From: a virus
Lineage: Duplodnaviria; Caudoviricetes
Strand: one strand, 5' to 3'
IMG/VR virus record: IMGVR_UViG_3300031519_000015
Coordinates: 9,208 to 73,207 of that record
Length of the DNA stretch: 64,000 nucleotides
In this document: positions 8,301 to 40,912 of the stretch, piece after piece
Layout of the letters: each line of letters starts with the position of its first letter
How positions within the stretch are numbered: the stretch's first letter is position 1
Notes under the pieces: generated by a model
What the model saw: only the letters and a program-made list of their open reading frames with translations
Databases searched by the model: none
What the model was told of the DNA's origin: nothing
Translations under genes and position numbers: made by a program

Positions 8301-11300
8301 TTGGCAAAGAAACTTTGCAGGTTTAGATCCTGACCCAGTAAGAGTAATACTATTTGTATTTACTGACGAGTTTATTCCTACTATACCTTGGCCTCGAAGT
8401 GCAAGCCGACCAACAAGTATAGACTACAGAGAAATACTGAAATATATCACAGAAAGAGATACATACTTTAGATATTATTGTGATCCAGCTGTTAAATTTG
8501 ATGTTCAAATTGTAATATGTGAGGGAATATTGGGTACATCTTCAGAAGCATCTCCTAATTTTGAAGATGACACAGTAACACCCCCAGACTTCATACATAA
8601 GCGTCAGATACATAGAATGGGCGTGTTTAATAATGTAGAAGACTTTAGACAACAGCAAGATTTAATAGTTTCTGAACTTAAAACTATATACCAAGACTTA
8701 TTCCCAAGAAATGATTCTATAGTAAATAATGGAATGCCTCCAATACTTGGTTTTTATGTAGATGACAGTCTATCTTATGGTACTAGGGCTTTAGGCTCTT
8801 CTTTGCCAGATAGAATTGAAGGTGGAGTTTTAGAGAGTTTCCAAAATTGGCTTTCTGATTACACATATGAAAATGGTTTAACGGATTATACTGGAGCTGC
8901 CGCAAGACCATTCTTCTACAAGAAAGTGGCTCGTGATGAAGGTTGGGTATCGCAGGCAGCTTCTATTTTAAATTCAGCGTTAGATAGAGATAACCTATTC
9001 GACGGTGGAGCAGTAAGATTATTTGCCAACAACTTAGGCACGTTTACAGAGGGCTTATCTGAGTTCAATATAAACGCACCTAGTGGTGGAGCTGCTTACA
9101 TTTTTGAAAATTTAGACTACGGATGGGAACTAACTCAAGAGATATTATCACCAACTACTAACAATAATCAATACATTGATAGATATGCCCACGACGTAGC
9201 AATTAGCAAACATGGCAACGCAATAGTTATAGGTTCACCCTTTATAGATGAAGCTGTTCAGATTTACGAGCATAATCCTGATTCTTCATTTTACTTCAGT
9301 CTTATTAGCTGGTTAAGAAATTATGGTCCACAGGATACTTCTTATGGAGAAATATATCAAGCTGCTAGAAGTCTTAATAATAATTTAAAAGGATCTATTA
9401 CTAGTAGTCAACAGCTGTCTGTAGCTAAAGACATATTCTATAATTCGTTAAGTCCTAGTGGAAGATTTGAATTTAGATTGTATCGGAATGAACACGACGG
9501 TGCGGACTATAGAATTAGAAAAACTTATAAATATAGCGACCTTGGTGCTGGGCATAGCTGGGATTGGTTGGCTAAAGACCACATGCCTTCTTCTAGAATG
9601 GGATATAGCGTCGATGTCAATTCAGACGGAACAACCGTTGTCGTGGGCTGTCCGACTGATAGTTTAGGCGCAAGAGATGCAAGTATATTTTGGTACAAGC
9701 CCGGTGTTGGTTGGAGTACCGATACTGCTCAGTGGTTCTCTAATGTAAATGCCGGTTCAATTAGAATATTAGAAGGTAGAAAATATTATCCTCATGATAC
9801 TGTTATGCAGTATGGAGTATTCGGCAATCTAAACAGGACGCTAGCTGGGGCTGATCAAGACACTCCACTGTATAATCATTATCACAATGCTTTTACTAGT
9901 AGGAATATTAAATACATAGAATCTGAATTTACTGATCCAGAAATTCCAGAAAATGTTGGAACTTTAATGATTATTACGCCAGAGGTTGACTCTCTGAGTG
10001 AAGAAGTTGTGAAAAATATTAAAGATTGGCTTGCTCTTGGCGATAGAAATTTAGTATTAGTGGGCGATGATCCTTTCTACGAAACCGACGAGAAGGGCAA
10101 TCAAGGAGCTTATGCTAGATCAAATGATATTTTAAATAGATTACTAAGTAATTTAGATTCTAGGATGAGAATAGAAAAAGCAGCTACCCGCTATGAATCA
10201 ATGGTTGATCAGGACACTGGTTTGTATCTAAATGTTCAACCTTCTTATGTTCCTCAAGTGGGCAAAGAAGCACCAAGACCAATGCGTTCGTTTATTACTG
10301 GCACTAACATAAGAGGCTCTGGAGTTGGTGATATTAGATTTTATGATGAAGGAATATCTGATAGTTACCAGTGTCAGAAAGCACCAGAGTATAGCATACT
10401 GCAAGGTCTGGACCAATTGCCTTTCCAAGAAAAGAAAGGCTATGAATCTGTTAACTATAAGTGTGAACTGCCTATTAAACACAAGGGCGACTTAAGAGCT
10501 TCTTGGTGGGATGAGTGTGAAAAGGAGACACCAAGGGGAATTATACTTGTTCCGTATCAAATAAACCTTGCCTTCCAATACGGCAGTCATCAAATTCAAG
10601 ATTGGGGATGCGATGTAGAAGCTAAATCTAGAACAGATAGGTTGACAGAAGGAATGGAACCAGTTCCTATTTTAGCCGCTGCTGAAAGATTAAATAAAGT
10701 ACAATTTAATGAAGGAAGTCCAGAGGAAATTTATGAAGAACGATATGTCTCTGGTCAAGAGTTTGTACCTAGAAATACAAAGCAGTTTACTAGTAATGTT
10801 AATTCTACAACACCACACTTTTATTGGACTGCTGAAAGTGGTAATTTTTCATCTATAAATTACAATTATTATAATGTTCAAAGATCTAGAAGTAAATTCT
10901 TAGAAGTCGGCAATCCTATACTGGAAGAAAATAACAAGACAGCTATAGCTATGGCTAAGTCTGAAATACTAGAATCAAGCAATGAAGTAATTGAACCTAT
11001 AACGGATAGTTTCCCTGTAGCCGCTAGAGAAGCGTATGGTCCATCAGAAGTACATTTGATATCTATGCTTAAAACAGAATCTGTAAGCATACTGAACTGG
11101 AGTGACGACGCTAATGGTAAGTTCTATATGAATTTGACAGATAAAGCGACTGCTGGACAGCTAGGTGGTGGAGCAAGAATTATTCAACTTGGAGGCTTTA
11201 CTGGTAATGACAGTTTCCGTCAAGCATACCCACGGGTTGAATCTGGCGAAGGATCTAGCTTACGTCAATTTTTTGAAAATCTTGGTAATTTTGTAACAGA

Positions 11301-33466: not shown

Positions 33467-35124
33467 CTTAAATTAAAGACCTCCGCTCTTTTTGTTTCCC
33501 ATAAGTTTATATTTCTTCTCATGCTAACCATTTGGTCATAAGCGATATTAAAGTCAAATGCCGCTCTCTGAGCGATGTTTTCAAAAGCCGCACAACTTTC
33601 ATTAAAGTAAACACCGGCTGTCACTTGAGTTGTGCAAGCGTATTGTAAATCCCTAATTAACCTTGCCATCATATGGCTGTTTATTTTCTCTGGAAGACAC
33701 AAAACATTACCGATAAGAAATGCAGCTAATTCTTGGTGAGCAACGCGAGATGTATCTATTCCTTCTTTTGATGATGGGTTTTTTATTTGAGGAGGAGACA
33801 TCCAAGAATCTTCAGGATTCATTAATTCCACACTGTCAAAATAGTCTTCCCACTTCTTTCCAGATTTTTCCCATTGAAAATGTTTTAAGAAATTATTCCT
33901 AGTTTCAAAACCTAATCTTCTACGTATAGGCTTTGGTTGCTTAAAGAACTCGTATAATGTTTTTGCTGTTAATTCATTATCTGGAACCGCCCTCATGCAG
34001 CCAGTTTCCATTTCTTTATACAAAGACTTTGGCTTAATTGGCATACCACCAAGCTGTCTAATAACACTTTCCATAGCAGAATAGTCAGTTCCAATGACAG
34101 GTACAGCACAAGCAGCCGCTTCTACTTGAGGTAGTCCAAACCCTTCACAGTTGGCGTGTTGTATGTATATGTCAAAAGTATTAATAATATCTGCTAATTG
34201 TTCATACTCTAAGCCTCTTTTAACATTAGAAAGTGGGCAATTATATTTTCCCGTAAATGGTGACTGAGCAACCGCACCTTTAAACAATGAGACAAACGGT
34301 TTGCTAGTGTCTGGACACACGTATGTAAATAACACTCTGGAAGATAAATTATATTGCTGTAGAAGTTCTGGTATGTCCCAACCCATGTCTGGATAACTTG
34401 TGTGACAATAAAGTTTATAATTATGATCATTGTCAACTTTGTCTAGTAATAATCTAAAAGACTCAAATAAGTCTGGATATAATTTCCTTCTTTGATTCCT
34501 CATTACTGTCCCCACAATTTTCCAATCGGGGTCTATTCCTATTTTTTTTCTTACACCATCCTTATCTTCACTTGGAGAATAGGCAGGATGAGCAGACGGT
34601 GGAGAGCTTCCCAAGTAGTTTATTTTACCACCAGATTGGCTTTTTAAAACTTCTCCAGCCCAATCAGAATAAGTAAAACAAGCATCAGCAGATTGGTATG
34701 TTGAAATCCATTGTCTTGCCTGTGGGGCAGCGTCAACGGTAGGCATAACGCACCAATTAAAGAACTTTCTAAAAGGGGATCTTTCTTGAAAGTCTAACAT
34801 CCAAAAATCTCTAATATCACATACTATATCTGGCTGAAAGTCTAAACAGACAGACTCAAAGAAAAATTCTCCAAACTGATTAGTATTCTTTGCGCTAAAG
34901 GCTTGTCTTTGCTGATCTGTGGCGTTTGCTGGCAAAGCAGCTGGATAATACTTCCAAGGTATAGTCGAGGCTCTAGGGTCTTCTGGAGTGCCATAAGCGG
35001 CTAGTTCTGCAATGATATATTTGTTAGTTTGATTTAAATAATTTAATATTTCTCTAGTATACGTAGCATACCCAGTATTTAAGAATGTAGCTTCACTGCA
35101 AAATAATATTCTTTTTTTCCGCAT
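33463..35124 (-). CDS. GT4 (GT-B) glycosyltransferase
   Basis: MRKKRILFCSE...TGYA...RNQRRK...DIYIQHANCEGFGLPQVEAAACAVPVIGTDYSAM. Start moved to MRKK at 35124, just after the ssb stop. Confidence 0.88.
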   Translation of the reverse strand: MRKKRILFCSEATFLNTGYATYTREILNYLNQTNKYIIAELAAYGTPEDPRASTIPWKYYPAALPANATDQQRQAFSAKNTNQFGEFFFESVCLDFQPDIVCDIRDFWMLDFQERSPFRKFFNWCVMPTVDAAPQARQWISTYQSADACFTYSDWAGEVLKSQSGGKINYLGSSPPSAHPAYSPSEDKDGVRKKIGIDPDWKIVGTVMRNQRRKLYPDLFESFRLLLDKVDNDHNYKLYCHTSYPDMGWDIPELLQQYNLSSRVLFTYVCPDTSKPFVSLFKGAVAQSPFTGKYNCPLSNVKRGLEYEQLADIINTFDIYIQHANCEGFGLPQVEAAACAVPVIGTDYSAMESVIRQLGGMPIKPKSLYKEMETGCMRAVPDNELTAKTLYEFFKQPKPIRRRLGFETRNNFLKHFQWEKSGKKWEDYFDSVELMNPEDSWMSPPQIKNPSSKEGIDTSRVAHQELAAFLIGNVLCLPEKINSHMMARLIRDLQYACTTQVTAGVYFNESCAAFENIAQRAAFDFNIAYDQMVSMRRNINLWETKRAEVFNLR

Positions 35125-35125
35125 T

Positions 35126-35440
35126 TCAATCCTCAAATTCTGGGTGACACAGATCAAATTCATTAATTCTAAATACTATATCGTCACTATCTTTGCTAGA
35201 ATTTTTTGCTGTTGCGTGAAATGTTATTTTTGCACCCTTATTTGCAAATCTTTCTAACAATTCTGCCCCGGTATGCCAAGCTTCACAATGTAAATATGTG
35301 GGAATCCTACTCTTTTCTCCAGTACTTTTTGTTTTTCTGTAGTTATAAACAACCACGACAAACTCTGCAAAAACCACATTATTAACAGTGTTGGTCTTAG
35401 GGTTTTCAACTAAGTATCCAGTGAAACAACAATTATTCAT
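35126..35440 (-). CDS. ssb: Single-stranded DNA-binding protein (bacterial-type OB fold)
   Basis: MNNCCFTGYLVENP...FVVVVYN...YLHCEAWHTGAELLERFANKGAKI follows the SSB pattern; short acidic end (PEFED). Confidence 0.75.
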   Translation of the reverse strand: MNNCCFTGYLVENPKTNTVNNVVFAEFVVVVYNYRKTKSTGEKSRIPTYLHCEAWHTGAELLERFANKGAKITFHATAKNSSKDSDDIVFRINEFDLCHPEFED

Positions 35441-35455
35441 ATTTTCTCCTATCTT

Positions 35456-35484
35456 AGTATATTAGCTTGTACAAACAAAAACAA
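35456..35484 (-). promoter_or_regulatory. Sigma70-like promoter upstream of ssb and the glycosylation operon
   Basis: Minus strand TTGTTT-17 nt-TATACT, then RBS aggag, in the intergenic gap after the dnaE C-fragment. Confidence 0.55.
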
Positions 35485-35488
35485 CAAC

Positions 35489-37048
35489 TTAAATCTCATG
35501 AATTTTATCAATTATAAAAGATGTGTCATTCTTGTTTACTGATCCGCAAAAAATTAGATTGTTCCCTTCGTATAATATATATTTATATTTATTCTTTACT
35601 TTTGGAAATATAATAACGCTATCTAGAATGCAAGTGTCATCTTCTATTGTCAAGAATGCCATTAATTGGCCTTTAGACTCACCTTTAGATATTTTATATT
35701 CCGATAGCCTTTGGACGTTACCAACTACGCATAACCCCTTACCCTTCTTTCCATTGACTATATCTTTACAAGTCGTGTTTGCAGCTGATTTATCAGCTAT
35801 GTCAACCCTACTGAGCGTTACGGGACAGCCAAGAAATCTAGTCTCTTGATCTACTATCCAAGACGGGTCGTCTTCTAATTCGTATGGAGGGTCTAGTAAT
35901 AGTTGTATCTCGTTCTCTACAATTTGTTTTCTTGCTATTTTACTTGTGCCGCCACCTTCTTTTTTTGTAGGTGCTAAAGATCTTAAACATCCTACGAAGT
36001 CTGTCCATTTTTTATCTTGATAATTAGATTGAACCCAAGTCTGCTCTGTCTTAGTTAATGTTCTATAAATGTCGTAATCATACATGGCTTTGTTTCTGGA
36101 AACTCTACCATTAAAATCTCTGAAGAAACCAATAGAAGCTAGAGCTTTAAATGCTGTTGAGCTTATTTTGGGGGCAAAGAAAAGTAATATTTCTAACCAT
36201 GTAAACTTCTTTATGGGCTTCTTTAATTCTTCTTCTGATTCTTTGACAGACTCAACTACTTTGTCGCCAGTTTTTCCAGTAAGAGATTTAATATCTTTTA
36301 TTCCAAAATAAACCTTATGTTTCTTTACATTAAATTTAGTATCAAAGTTTGCCAAACTTGGAGTCCTTGCTTCTATTTCAAACAGTTTAGCATCTGATAT
36401 TAGCTCGTATATTTCTTGATGTGGATCTTGTTTTTCATTTGCGTAATAAAGATAGGACAGGAAGAATTCTTCTGTATTGTGAACTTTCTGGTAAGCACTC
36501 CAATAAGAACAAACAGCGTATGATATACTATGAGATTTATTAAATGCGTATCTAGAAGATGCTTGAATCCAACCAAATATTTCTTCTGCCTCTTCTTTGT
36601 TTACAATTTTAGCCTTCTTAGCTCCAGCTATAAACTTTTTCTTAACCTTAGCCATTAAGTCTGCTTTTTTCTTACCAATCGCTTTACGTAATTCATCTGC
36701 TTCTTCAAGATTAAAACCAGCTACCTTTTGAGCAATACGCATGGATTGTTCTTGATATACTAGCACCCCATACGTAGGCAGCAATACATCTTCTAATGAT
36801 TCGTGCAAGTATGTTACTTCTTCACGACCATGCTTGCGATCAATAAAGTGTTGAGTCATAGACTTTCCATCCACGAAAGCTTTTAAGCATCCGGGTCGAA
36901 TAATAGCAATTAAAGCTGACAACTCTTCAATATTATTTGGGGCAAGTTTCTTAGACCAAGACTTACCAAGGTTGCTTTCTAGCTGGAAGACACCCTTGGT
37001 TTTACCTTCTTCAAATAGCTTCCAAGTTTTCTCGTCGTTATATTCCAT
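35489..37048 (-). CDS. dnaE: DNA polymerase III alpha subunit, C-terminal fragment (fingers, HhH, OB fold)
   Basis: TKGVFQLES, LSALIAIIRPG, TYGVLVYQEQSM..AQKVAGF...ADELRKAIGKK, YAFNKSHSISY, ETRFLG, MAFLTIEDDT. Confidence 0.93.
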   Translation of the reverse strand: MEYNDEKTWKLFEEGKTKGVFQLESNLGKSWSKKLAPNNIEELSALIAIIRPGCLKAFVDGKSMTQHFIDRKHGREEVTYLHESLEDVLLPTYGVLVYQEQSMRIAQKVAGFNLEEADELRKAIGKKKADLMAKVKKKFIAGAKKAKIVNKEEAEEIFGWIQASSRYAFNKSHSISYAVCSYWSAYQKVHNTEEFFLSYLYYANEKQDPHQEIYELISDAKLFEIEARTPSLANFDTKFNVKKHKVYFGIKDIKSLTGKTGDKVVESVKESEEELKKPIKKFTWLEILLFFAPKISSTAFKALASIGFFRDFNGRVSRNKAMYDYDIYRTLTKTEQTWVQSNYQDKKWTDFVGCLRSLAPTKKEGGGTSKIARKQIVENEIQLLLDPPYELEDDPSWIVDQETRFLGCPVTLSRVDIADKSAANTTCKDIVNGKKGKGLCVVGNVQRLSEYKISKGESKGQLMAFLTIEDDTCILDSVIIFPKVKNKYKYILYEGNNLIFCGSVNKNDTSFIIDKIHEI

Positions 37049-37556
37049 CGCAACACTCTTCGTTTTTGGTTAAGCACAATGCTTCAAATGTTTTGCATCT
37101 AAAATCTTCAAATTTAGGTATGATATCTTGTTCTATTTTATATCCATAATTTATTGACCCCTGCTTGTTAGTAGGGTGTATATTAACCATTTTAATCCAA
37201 TCTTTTTTTGGTAGTGCATAATACATTACCTTTTGTTTTATTGAGTTGTATACGACCACCCTCAGAGTTCCATGCTTTTCTTTGCCACCATGCGAAACAA
37301 CTCTATCGACTAAGCCTCTTTTTCTATTGTTTATTGTAGAAGATTTACAGTCGCTTCCATCACTAAAATCCATGTGATAAGAATCAATTCTTTCGTATCC
37401 ACCAATATGAGACATGGCTTCTTCTAAAAGAAGAGACACATCAAACCATTCTGCATTAATTTTATTTATGTCAACAGATTCAGCGAAAGTTGGATGATAG
37501 GGCAAAATAACATCTTGTATCAATAATTGTTTTTTTGTTAATTCATTATTTGACAT
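37038..37556 (-). CDS. Putative PD-(D/E)xK-type nuclease / hypothetical protein
   Basis: LLLEE...MDFSDGSDCKS spacing is compatible with a PD-(D/E)xK core. Start reassigned to MSNNEL at 37556, overlapping the exonuclease stop. Confidence 0.4.
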   Translation of the reverse strand: MSNNELTKKQLLIQDVILPYHPTFAESVDINKINAEWFDVSLLLEEAMSHIGGYERIDSYHMDFSDGSDCKSSTINNRKRGLVDRVVSHGGKEKHGTLRVVVYNSIKQKVMYYALPKKDWIKMVNIHPTNKQGSINYGYKIEQDIIPKFEDFRCKTFEALCLTKNEECCDGI

Positions 37557-38226
37557 ACAGATTACCGTTAGCAAACGCCTTGTCCAGTTCAATGTTTTGG
37601 TAGACTGCACGATGAGTCTTCAATAGCTTTATAAAGATATTAGCTGTATCCTTAACATCCTGCAAGGCATCGTGAGCATTATCTGTACTCAAGCCCATAC
37701 GCTCACGCAGCGTGTCCATGCTAATTGATCTAATGCTAGGATCGCCCTCTGTCCACATATGCATATTATCCATAACATCACATTTGTGAATCTTACTGAA
37801 GATCTTTTGTTGTTGCCTGCCTTCATCGAATGGTCCATACTCTTTACATAAGCGATTAATAATAACCATGTCAAATCCTATGATATTAAAGCCTACTGGA
37901 ATAGGATTAAAGAATGGATCTTTCTTCCAATTGTATTTATCCACAAAGGTGCAAAACTTTCTCCATACTGATTTTGCCGTTGGAGCTTTGGCTAGATCTT
38001 TTCTATTCTTCCCAGTTATTTTCAACGCTCCTTCTTCAAGAGGGTCTAACCCAGCAGCAATAGCAGCCTCGTCGTTAATAATAGGTCTAATCTCGCTATT
38101 AAAAGTACCCTTCATGGAAAGGTTGCGACCGTCCAGAGCGAGAGCTGCTAGCTGAGTTGGTTGACATCTGTTAGGGTTGCGTCCACCTGTTTCAAAGTCA
38201 AATACAATAAAGTCTCTATTAGCCAT
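37546..38226 (-). CDS. dnaQ: DEDDh 3'-5' exonuclease (DnaQ/epsilon-like proofreading subunit)
   Basis: ExoI FIVFDFETGG; ExoII VGFNIIGFDM; ExoIII AHDALQDV. Confidence 0.85.
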   Translation of the reverse strand: MANRDFIVFDFETGGRNPNRCQPTQLAALALDGRNLSMKGTFNSEIRPIINDEAAIAAGLDPLEEGALKITGKNRKDLAKAPTAKSVWRKFCTFVDKYNWKKDPFFNPIPVGFNIIGFDMVIINRLCKEYGPFDEGRQQQKIFSKIHKCDVMDNMHMWTEGDPSIRSISMDTLRERMGLSTDNAHDALQDVKDTANIFIKLLKTHRAVYQNIELDKAFANGNLYVK

Positions 38227-38228
38227 AA

Positions 38229-38720
38229 TTAGTCCTTCTTTTCTAGTTTATCTAGTTTATTAATGCTTAGGTTAAAACAATCTGCTTTAACTTTAAAATT
38301 ATTACTTGGATCAATGTCGCCCTTCTTTAGTTTTCTAGCCTGTTTAAAATACTCAGCCTTGTTCTTTTGTCCTAACACCCATGCTTTTACAGGTCTATCA
38401 CCTTCAAATTGTACTCTTACAAAAAGGTAAATATCACATCTTTGTTTTGTATTAAACGCAGCTACTGAACAGTCGTAGTGTGGCTTAGGAGGACTTGTGC
38501 ATCGTTTTGTTTTTACATCATATGTTTTGCCACCACTTACAATATCAAAGTCATAAGTATTAGCTTTAATTCCACCAACACACTCCAAAGCTATCAACTC
38601 TCCTACAAAACCCGCAACGTTACCTTTACCCTTGGTTATAGAATTGTTAAGCTTGCCTAAATCTTTAGCCATTACTCTGGCTTTAACTCTCATATAATCT
38701 GTAACTTCAACCTCTATCAT
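38229..38720 (-). CDS. Putative PD-(D/E)xK nuclease, 163 aa
   Basis: GFVGELIA...YDFDIV....YDVKTK (E...D...DxK) followed by DIYLFVRV. Confidence 0.55.
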   Translation of the reverse strand: MIEVEVTDYMRVKARVMAKDLGKLNNSITKGKGNVAGFVGELIALECVGGIKANTYDFDIVSGGKTYDVKTKRCTSPPKPHYDCSVAAFNTKQRCDIYLFVRVQFEGDRPVKAWVLGQKNKAEYFKQARKLKKGDIDPSNNFKVKADCFNLSINKLDKLEKKD

Positions 38721-40278
38721 TAGTCAATTCCTTAATTTTCATTAGCTTGTCTAGTAGATTAATTCCTAAGACATCAAATTTTACATGACCCAGTGCTTCT
38801 AAATCTGTCATTTCTAATCCTGCTATTTTTTCTGTAGAACCTTTCTGCGGTATCATTGGGCATACATTTTTAAGCTTGTCTTTAGATATTACAACTCCAG
38901 CAGCATGTTTACCTTGAGTCTTGAATGTTCCTTCTATGTCAATTGCTTGTTGGAAATATTCTGCATAGTCACCTTCAAGCTTACCATCGTCTGATATTTG
39001 GCAAAAGTCTCGCAGCTCATCCGCGCGGTTCAGCAAAGACCATCTGATAATTGATCTATCTTCATCGTCCATGTCTGCAAGTTGATCTGATATTTCGGCC
39101 TCGTTTGGTACACTCTTAGTTATAGCATTCATCTCACTAAAAGAACAAGCTTCATTGACACGAAGTACTTCTTTTATTGCACTACGCCCCCTTAGTCTAC
39201 CAAAAGTTATCATCTGGCTAACATGTTCATTACCATACGTTTTCTTTAAATATTCTATAACGTCGTCACGCTTCTTACCCGGAACATCCATGTCAATATC
39301 AGGCAGTGAAACATGACCGCCAGTATTTCTGCCAGCGTTGTAAAATCTTTCAAATATTAAGTCGTGTTCAACTGGGTCAATCTTTGTTATGCCAACTAGA
39401 TAAGAAATTAAACACCCTGCGGCAGAACCTCTTCCCGGTCCAGCCAACCATCCCATGTCTTCTTCAACGTGTCTAATAATATCTTGAACTATAAGAAAGT
39501 ATCCAAACAAGTCTGCATCTTTTATTACTTGTAGCTCTTTCCTAAATCTGTCACCGTACTGTATACGTTTAGCATCGTCGTTACCTACCTTTTTAGACAA
39601 AAACTTTTTGTACCCTTCCCGAGCCATTCTTGTTAGATACTCTTCTTGAGACATATTGTTAGGACATAAAAATTTAGGAAGCATGGGTGGGCTTAATATT
39701 TCGTAGTCTTCGCAAGAATTATATATATGCTCCAACTCTTTAGTGACTTTACCTTCTGTTACGCATTTATCGTCTTTCTGAAAATATTCTAAAACTTCTG
39801 GATCTAAATTATTATTTCTAATTTGTGCGTTTATTTTAGGTAGGGTTTTTTTTAAGGCAGAACAGAGTAGAACTCTGTGCAGAACTGCATGTTCTTTTTT
39901 AGCATAGTAGGATGGTTGAATATTATCTTTAGACTGCTGTATTCCAATTAAATTATTTTTACTGATAATGTCTTTAGCTATGTTTTTAGGTATACTTCCA
40001 TTTTCGTCTGTCATGGAAACCATTTGTATCAAGTCGTTCCAACCATCTTTGTTCTTAGCGTAAACAGTTGTGCTATCAAACGCACAGCCAATAATAGGCT
40101 TTATGCCCATCTTTTTACAAGCTTGATGAAACGACACAGCTCCAGATATAGATTTGTAGTCTGTAATCCCACATGCTGGATAGTCTCTATCGGCGCATAT
40201 TTTTGCAAGTTCATGTGGCTTAGAAAACCCTTTAAGCAAACTATAATGCGTAAAGTTCTTCAGTGGAAACCAATTCAA
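38707..40278 (-). CDS. dnaE: DNA polymerase III alpha subunit, N-terminal fragment (PHP domain plus catalytic palm)
   Basis: THYSLLKG..GITD (PHP), GPGRGSAAGCLISY, LIFERFYN, SLPDIDMD, GKHAAGVVIS, KFDVLG. All three catalytic Asp positions are present and the ORF stops about 18 aa after KFDVLG. Confidence 0.93.
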   Translation of the reverse strand: MNWFPLKNFTHYSLLKGFSKPHELAKICADRDYPACGITDYKSISGAVSFHQACKKMGIKPIIGCAFDSTTVYAKNKDGWNDLIQMVSMTDENGSIPKNIAKDIISKNNLIGIQQSKDNIQPSYYAKKEHAVLHRVLLCSALKKTLPKINAQIRNNNLDPEVLEYFQKDDKCVTEGKVTKELEHIYNSCEDYEILSPPMLPKFLCPNNMSQEEYLTRMAREGYKKFLSKKVGNDDAKRIQYGDRFRKELQVIKDADLFGYFLIVQDIIRHVEEDMGWLAGPGRGSAAGCLISYLVGITKIDPVEHDLIFERFYNAGRNTGGHVSLPDIDMDVPGKKRDDVIEYLKKTYGNEHVSQMITFGRLRGRSAIKEVLRVNEACSFSEMNAITKSVPNEAEISDQLADMDDEDRSIIRWSLLNRADELRDFCQISDDGKLEGDYAEYFQQAIDIEGTFKTQGKHAAGVVISKDKLKNVCPMIPQKGSTEKIAGLEMTDLEALGHVKFDVLGINLLDKLMKIKELTNDRG

Positions 40279-40288
40279 TACACTATCC

Positions 40289-40912
40289 TCATTCCTTATA
40301 ATAAAATCTTACATCATACTTGTTTGATGGCGTAGTATCTTTATCTGCTCTAGGTAGCAAACAATAGTTACTTTTAGCCAACGCACAACGAGTGTCTTCA
40401 ATCTCTTTTGGGTTTGTAAACAATGGGTTAATTTCAAATTCTACATTGCTTACAGAAAAATCCTGTCTAACTAATTCTAGCATCTGTTGAACAATTTTAC
40501 AATCAAAACCTTCTGCGTCAATCTTTAATTTTTTAATAGAGGATATCTCGAAATTATTAATAAACGTTTCAAAAGTCATACACTCTACTTCTTGAGCTTT
40601 GATAACTGAGCTAACAAGTATATTACGTTTTTCGCACTCTATCGTAATGGCTTCGTGTATTTCTGCAATTTTGTTACAACCACGCAAGAAAAAGGGTAGG
40701 TCATATTCTTTAATTGTTTCAGGTTCAATATAATATATAGGAATTGTACTATTTTTATCTGTTATAGCTGCTTTGACTTTTATGGTATTAGAATAATATT
40801 CTATGTTATTTAAATAAAAATCTATAGGCTCAACGTATATACCAGACTCATTATTTTCTGGTATAGTATATCTAAAATCAGAAGTACCAATATCAACAAA
40901 ATCAAAAATCAT
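40289..40912 (-). CDS. FkbM-family SAM-dependent methyltransferase
   Basis: FVDIGT, IYVEP, LKIDAEGFDCKIV motifs. Confidence 0.75.
   Translation of the reverse strand: MIFDFVDIGTSDFRYTIPENNESGIYVEPIDFYLNNIEYYSNTIKVKAAITDKNSTIPIYYIEPETIKEYDLPFFLRGCNKIAEIHEAITIECEKRNILVSSVIKAQEVECMTFETFINNFEISSIKKLKIDAEGFDCKIVQQMLELVRQDFSVSNVEFEINPLFTNPKEIEDTRCALAKSNYCLLPRADKDTTPSNKYDVRFYYKE

Follow-up and report, generated by a model that had tools for sequence, protein, structure and literature searches.

The 64,000-nucleotide stretch of DNA analyzed here (the window) covers positions 9,208 to 73,207 of the IMG/VR record IMGVR_UViG_3300031519_000015, a 73-kb contig of an uncultured aquatic phage (Caudoviricetes) with an estimated completeness of 46%. 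The list of its open reading frames (ORFs) contains six head-to-tail genes on the minus strand, which are termed dnaE-N, o163, exo, o190, dnaE-C and ssb (Table 1). dnaE-N and dnaE-C encode the N- and C-terminal parts of the α subunit of DNA polymerase III (DnaE). This catalytic subunit is not encoded as one polypeptide, because the two ORFs are separated by 1658 nt that contain three genes and stop codons in every frame. The gap, which extends from 37049 to 38706, is wholly coding, and its three ORFs lie on the same strand as the two halves and either overlap the adjacent genes or leave a spacing of 2 nt. When the operon is scanned for promoters and terminators, the signal is at chance level.

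Table 1. Genes of the split dnaE operon, with positions in the window
Gene	Position	Strand	Product and features
dnaE-N	38707..40278	-	523 aa; degenerate, shortened PHP, palm and thumb, with three catalytic Asp; TTG start behind GAGGA
o163	38229..38720	-	Small PD-(D/E)XK-like nuclease gene; sporadic, probably mobile insert at the N/exo junction
exo	37546..38226	-	226 aa; DnaQ/epsilon-like DEDDh 3'-5' exonuclease
o190	37038..37556	-	172 aa from ATG 37556, or 190 aa from GTG 37610; sporadic insert between exo and dnaE-C; may be a PD-(D/E)XK nuclease
dnaE-C	35489..37048	-	519 aa; fingers, putative HhH-like and OB regions; ATG within the 3' end of o190
ssb	35126..35440	-	PF00436 (3e-6); conserved neighbour downstream of dnaE-C

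The dnaE-N protein matches the PHP domain (PF02811, 1e-15) and the palm domain of Pol III α (PF07733, 5e-67) of Pfam, and it aligns with residues 9-71 and 267-573 of E. coli α. Asp327 and Asp329 in the PDIDMD motif and Asp502 in the KFDVLG motif align with Asp401, Asp403 and Asp555 of E. coli α, and these three residues are conserved or invariant in 47 distinct relatives. The protein ends 21 residues past Asp502. The dnaE-C protein matches the fingers domain (PF17657, 1e-48), and its fourth residue corresponds to residue 592 of E. coli α. The alignment extends from residue 592 to 841, with a weak further stretch at 978-1060, and the GVFQLES, IIRPG, YQEQ and FNKSH motifs are conserved in 40 relatives. 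The break is located between residues 573 and 592 of E. coli α. Likewise, on PHROG 405, which is a profile of full-length phage DnaE with 1190 positions, the N and C proteins occupy positions 244-617 and 627-1069, respectively. In the structure 2HNH, the cut would presumably fall just inside the first helices of the fingers domain. The original prediction described an N-fragment that contains the PHP domain and all three catalytic aspartates and ends soon afterwards, and a C-fragment that resumes where an intact DnaE continues. Both descriptions are confirmed by these alignments. The N fragment is also found in another arrangement: in the 762-residue protein P0114 of one relative, a circularly permuted YpsA/SLOG domain (PF12694, 2e-35) is joined to its C-terminus precisely where the break lies.

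The PHP match of dnaE-N spans positions 6-111 of the 164 positions of PF02811, and the domain is present in a vestigial form. In the window and its close relatives, the canonical metal ligands (HxH, DH, E and DxH) have all been lost through substitution or deletion, and approximately 100 residues are gone as compared to L061, a deeper-branching split relative, and to relatives with an intact dnaE gene. The complete PHP active site is kept in the deeper-branching split relatives (L061:8001-9905) and in the intact relatives, and is lacking in the corresponding region of the window (39700-40278).

The exo protein matches PF00929 (3e-12) and PHROG 192, 'DNA polymerase exonuclease subunit' (2e-28). 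Its DEDDh motifs, Asp10/Glu12 of Exo I, Asp119 of Exo II and His185 to Asp190 (Hx4D) of Exo III, are conserved or invariant in 46 sequences. In all split loci that include this region, exo immediately precedes dnaE-C, apart from an insert at the exo/C junction in some relatives. Thus, the gene that is constant in the gap is predicted to encode a DnaQ-like proofreading exonuclease, and not a homing endonuclease. Because the metal ligands of the PHP domain are lost in the subclade of the window, exo is the only candidate proofreader at this locus, and its product probably functions as such.

The two halves may be joined into one mature chain by a group I or II intron, a split intein, bypassing or frameshifting. 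Split inteins do so for the DnaE of cyanobacteria and for the 'fractured' DnaE genes of metagenomes (PMC2677866), and inteins do colonize the dnaE genes of the related phages at other sites. A Pfam search detects no Hint or Intein_splicing domain in dnaE-N or dnaE-C. The same search detects genuine inteins in the C fragment of L046, in the PHP domain of P0022 and in the palm domain of P0028, indicating that it works in this phage family. The intein of L046 lies in frame, together with an HNH domain, in a dnaE-C ORF of 786 aa (L046:10821-13178, plus strand; Intein_splicing, 1e-12) near GVFQLES, approximately 60 residues past the conserved split. When the N end and the C start are aligned to intact relatives, they abut each other, with a linker of only 4-10 residues missing; an N protein that stops so soon after the third aspartate, and a C protein that resumes at its fourth residue, carry no intein motif at either end. 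Rfam gives no match of any kind, and hence no group I or II intron, at E<=1 across 34900-40600, no non-coding DNA lies between the halves, and the exo gene in the gap is under purifying selection. The gap ranges from ~0.7 to >4 kb among the relatives, far past any known bypass, so that translational bypassing is excluded. It is therefore extremely unlikely that the halves are rejoined into a single chain, and the claim of the original prediction that the ends are free of inteins and that the three coupled ORFs leave no room for an intron is borne out.

To determine how widespread the split is, viral contigs were scanned with dnaE-N, and 63 related loci with 50-87% identity are obtained, 56 of which cover the whole region. 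The order N, exo, C is found in all 56 covering loci, and all of these ORFs are intact. In these loci, ssb comes after dnaE-C wherever the contig reaches far enough, and it does so in nearly all related loci. A profile-free exhaustive search of 1.8 billion cluster representatives (50% identity) gives 18,347 matches, and the best 150 of them, with 38-63% identity, were inspected. Among these best 150 of the 18,347, 143 are N fragments of ~500-650 aa that end no more than ~20 residues from the same break. In three more distant split loci, exo is still located directly before dnaE-C, and extra genes, including one for UDG, are present between N and exo. According to these sequence comparisons, the split is the norm in a very large family of uncultured phages, and is not private to the phage of the window. 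This result corrects the original prediction, which considered the split in this phage. When the locus is compared with cultured phages, megablast gives no match, and tblastn gives only distant DnaE proteins, the best of which show ~31-33% identity and are contiguous where the coordinates of the N and C matches were compared.

Several side observations were made during these scans. A scan of genome contigs for a host signal gives only two phage-like contigs binned in metagenome-assembled genomes (MAGs) and one distant DnaE match of Bacteroidia (27%), and hence no indication of the host. The two phage contigs carry dnaE-C (L082 and L083) and are binned in the MAGs of a Thermoplasmatales archaeon and a Flavobacteriales bacterium, most likely as a binning artefact and not as a sign of the host. 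Some distant split relatives have a small ORF of 63-83 aa between dnaE-N and exo (L069:7602-7793 and L061:9910-10161), which is not present in the clade of the window. Upstream of dnaE-N, a gene for an FkbM-family methyltransferase directly adjoins it in the window (40289-40912, minus strand), and a DUF1559/SBP_bac_10 prepilin-like gene immediately precedes it in a related contig of 113 kb (L080:1173-2279).

The junctions of the operon are most simply organized in the insert-free relatives. In these relatives, the stop codon of N overlaps the ATG of exo, with AAGGA in front, and the ATG of dnaE-C (M-S-N-E-Y...) lies within the last codons of exo, so that N, exo and C are in three different frames. 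These overlapping junctions are read as translational coupling, which may result in the synthesis of the three proteins at a ratio of 1:1:1. In the window, both junctions are occupied. The ATG of o163 takes the position of the exo ATG of the insert-free loci, and the end of o163 rebuilds the sequence AAGGAC-TAA-TT-ATG for exo. Likewise, o190 starts on the ATG-TCA-AAT (M-S-N) with which dnaE-C begins in the insert-free loci, and a new ATG for dnaE-C is located in the 3' end of o190. Each junction of the relatives is either empty or occupied by one ORF on the same strand, which comes from many unrelated families. These are Endonuclease VII-type HNH genes (16 loci), HNH_3 genes (4 loci), another HNH-like family that is found at both junctions (7 loci), FkbM methyltransferases, a glycosyltransferase-like gene and several unknowns. 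The FkbM-family genes at the N/exo junction belong to other lineages and are found in three relatives (L011:8760-9359, L015:9559-10248 and L051 J1).

The o163 gene is present at the N/exo junction in 5 of the 56 loci. Its product matches neither Pfam nor PHROG families. Its AlphaFold2 (AF2) model has a mean predicted local distance difference test score (pLDDT) of 88.9, and the top matches of this model in a Foldseek search are NhoI, Eco15I, DpnI and HincII, all of which are PD-(D/E)XK enzymes, with modest scores (E 2e-4; template modelling (TM) score 0.43). Glu41, Asp59 and, in the Asp68-Val-Lys70 motif, Asp68 and Lys70 are invariant, and Asp57 is nearly invariant; metagenomic homologues (n = 292) are found in varied genomic contexts. 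The o163 protein is predicted to be a restriction-endonuclease-like nuclease of the PD-(D/E)XK type, an assignment of moderate strength at this TM score. The o190 gene is likewise present at the exo/C junction in 5 of the 56 loci, and has 10 homologues only. Its product does not match Pfam or PHROG families either, and its AF2 model is unusable (pLDDT 42). Glu45, Glu46, Asp63 and Asp69-Cys-Lys71 are invariant, and the leads from the protein atlas are restriction-enzyme families only. The o190 protein may also be a PD-(D/E)XK nuclease. Because they are sporadic, nuclease-like and placed on the start codons of the downstream genes, o163 and o190 look like mobile nuclease genes that invaded the operon after it had been split, and they may have spread by homing.

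Among the best 150 of the 18,347 matches, contiguous DnaE is represented by three full-length and three truncated sequences with 42-51% identity. Intact alleles of related phages are represented by P0002, P0025 and P0132. Thus, both the intact alleles and the same break point, which the original prediction proposed to seek in related phages, are found. The loci with intact dnaE share synteny with the window, including the ssb and glycosyltransferase genes downstream, and exo is located outside dnaE. It is directly upstream of dnaE in L066, where ssb comes after the intact dnaE, one gene upstream in L067 and ~4 kb downstream in L068. When trees are constructed for the palm region with FastTree and with a quick IQ-TREE run, the intact forms are placed at three positions among the split forms. 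The approximately unbiased (AU) test does not reject a tree in which all split forms constitute one clade (p 0.52), and the claim that the intact forms arose by re-fusion was dropped for this reason. Because a single split clade is not rejected, the data are compatible with one ancient relocation of exo into dnaE.

The split may instead have arisen when a free-standing homing endonuclease inserted into dnaE, in analogy to the nrdA gene of phage Aeh1, possibly carrying the neighbouring exo gene with it, and homing may then have spread the split allele. Endonuclease-split phage genes have precedents (PMC2988022), and both junctions are hot spots for HNH, Endonuclease VII and PD-(D/E)XK-like genes. 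In addition, a relative with intact dnaE has an o163 homologue with 51% identity directly upstream of exo (L067:3670-4895), indicating that the adjacency of o163 and exo exists both inside and outside the split. On the other side, exo is always present, whereas many split loci have no endonuclease gene at either junction, and the inserts occupy the start codons of an operon that is already split. The endonucleases may therefore postdate the split, as argued for gene 43 of phage 25. The trees do not order the split and the arrival of the endonucleases. Because the nuclease-like ORFs are sporadic and absent from many relatives, we regard an endonuclease as a possible but doubtful cause of the split. 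The analogy to Aeh1 that was drawn in the original prediction fits the secondary inserts, but not the conserved core, in which the constant gene of the gap is exo.

The ratios of nonsynonymous to synonymous substitution rates (dN/dS) of N, exo and C against seven relatives are 0.015-0.08, with the synonymous sites saturated. The contig of the window has one copy of the palm and one copy of the fingers, and a single copy of the palm is also found in each of five relatives with a completeness of 68-83%. No family A or B polymerase (PolA or PolB) is found in the contig of the window or in four relatives of this set. In the relatives, the locus is part of a replication module with DnaB, primase, deoxynucleoside monophosphate (dNMP) kinase, a Cas4-like nuclease, the split dnaE and SSB. 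The core genes N, exo and C are intact and under strong purifying selection. An intact dnaE elsewhere combined with decay of the fragments, which the original prediction named as an outcome that would speak against it, is not observed in this contig of 46% completeness, in which only one palm copy is present and both fragments are intact at these dN/dS values.

The pieces may form no replicase at all; either or both could be relics or serve other functions, with the phage genome being copied by the Pol III of the host. The decay of the PHP domain in the subclade of the window would be consistent with this possibility, as would the lack of a detectable clamp or clamp loader in the contig, which is only 46% complete. 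The N and C genes always co-occur in an intact form, the motifs for catalysis and nucleotide binding are invariant or conserved in their products, their dN/dS is ~0.03, and in the relatives they belong to a replication module that also includes DnaB, primase, exo and SSB. It is therefore very unlikely that these genes do not encode a working polymerase.

The polymerase core of this phage is likely to be a non-covalent assembly of the N and C proteins and, probably, exo. In this model, the replicative polymerase would be a C-family (DnaE-type) enzyme built from separate polypeptides. The dnaE-N protein would contribute the remnant of the PHP domain, the thumb and the palm, in which the three metal-binding aspartates lie. 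The dnaE-C protein would contribute the fingers, which contact the incoming nucleotide and the template, together with the HhH-like and OB regions. The cut would fall in the loop just past the helix that follows the third catalytic aspartate, so that one active site would be shared by two chains. Translational coupling would deliver matched amounts of N, exo and C for their co-assembly into an αε-like core. In the window, both coupling junctions would have been invaded, by o163 and o190, each of which sits on the downstream start codon and would restore the start signal at its own 3' end. The original prediction proposed a heterodimeric replicase that assembles non-covalently. The split is genuine and unspliced, both halves are functional as judged by their conservation, and non-covalent assembly is the sole reading left by the comparative evidence, but a three-protein core of N, exo and C is likelier than a heterodimer, because exo is translationally coupled between the halves.

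Several points weigh against this model. The assembly of N and C rests on comparative evidence, and not on biochemistry or structure. All split members are metagenomic and none is found in cultured phages, so that their expression has never been observed. In dnaE-C, the match to HHH_6 is weak (1e-3, 19.6 bits, below the Pfam cut-off of 25.6), and the alignment of the OB region to residues 978-1060 of E. coli α is also weak, with 1.9 bits only; a match to the OB domain PF01336 is present in the DnaE proteins of the intact relatives. The sliding clamp DnaN is not found in the contig of the window, at its completeness of 46%. Finally, the assignment of o163 as a nuclease is moderate and that of o190 is unproven.

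The exo protein may further be indispensable to the structure as a third subunit, bound at the cut between palm and fingers or spanning it, such that the gene order mirrors the physical order. This arrangement is rather unlikely. If it is true, it would explain why exo is always located before dnaE-C and why the PHP domain has decayed in the subclade of the window, and the core would be a PolC-like enzyme with an 'internal proofreader' made from three chains.

The split enzyme resembles the single-chain DnaE proteins (E. coli, 2HNH and 5FKU; T. aquaticus, 2HPI; those of Pbunavirus, actinophages and Bacillus phages) in the domain order PHP-palm-thumb-fingers, with HhH and OB regions that are only weakly matched, the three aspartates and the finger motifs. 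It also resembles the E. coli α-ε pair, in which the DnaQ-type exonuclease is a separate partner. It differs from the single-chain enzymes in that the chain is cut between the positions of residues 573 and 592 of E. coli α, the exo gene is located in the cut, the PHP domain is vestigial in the subclade of the window and the C-terminal τ-binding region is absent. It also differs from the DnaE proteins of cultured phages, to which its identity does not exceed ~33% and whose genes are contiguous where checked. PolC of Firmicutes carries its exonuclease within the polymerase polypeptide, as a domain placed inside the PHP domain. The window system is similar to PolC in that a DnaQ-type exonuclease is embedded in the coding region of a C-family polymerase, but its exonuclease is a separate protein, the gene of which is located at the palm/fingers boundary.

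Phages provide experimental precedents for intein-free split enzymes that reassemble, namely gp43A/gp43B, which form a family B polymerase in the Aeromonas phages 25 and 44RR, the NrdA of Aeh1 that is split by mobE, and the T4 topoisomerase of genes 39/60 (PMC2988022). As in these systems, an essential enzyme is encoded as two unspliced polypeptides at the locus described here, with endonuclease-like genes associated with the gap and overlapping starts and stops, and its assembly would follow the same pattern as judged from the genes. It differs from them in that the polymerase is a member of the C family, the split is apparently ancient and is family-wide, and the gap always contains the gene of a probable partner subunit, the proofreader, whereas the endonucleases are optional. 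The 'fractured genes' of marine metagenomes include three DnaE loci, in which split-intein halves are located at the break and trans-splicing occurs (Dassa et al. 2009, PMC2677866). The window locus and the fractured DnaE loci share two neighbouring genes, a free-standing endonuclease gene, or in the window endonuclease-like genes, between them and an origin in aquatic metagenomes. Unlike the fractured DnaE and the cyanobacterial split DnaE, the window break has no intein motif. No description of an intein-free split C-family DnaE with a nested proofreader gene is found in a literature search with poor coverage of subscription journals. Thus, intein-free split phage replication enzymes (PMC2988022) and split-intein DnaE (PMC2677866) are already known, and an intein-free split of a C-family polymerase with a proofreader gene in the break is apparently new.

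Such genes will be miscounted or thrown out wherever genome annotation or a survey of polymerases presupposes a single long DnaE. The break point is a ready site for the engineering of intein-free split C-family polymerases. Pol III α is the textbook single-chain replicase of bacteria, and here it is cut between the palm, which holds the catalytic metals, and the fingers, which bind the nucleotide, and this form is maintained throughout a very large group of phages that are abundant in aquatic habitats. The family thus offers a natural system for the assembly of a C-family active site from two chains, for the recruitment of a proofreader to a polymerase with a vestigial PHP domain, and for the way in which the junctions of an essential operon tolerate invasion by selfish nucleases.

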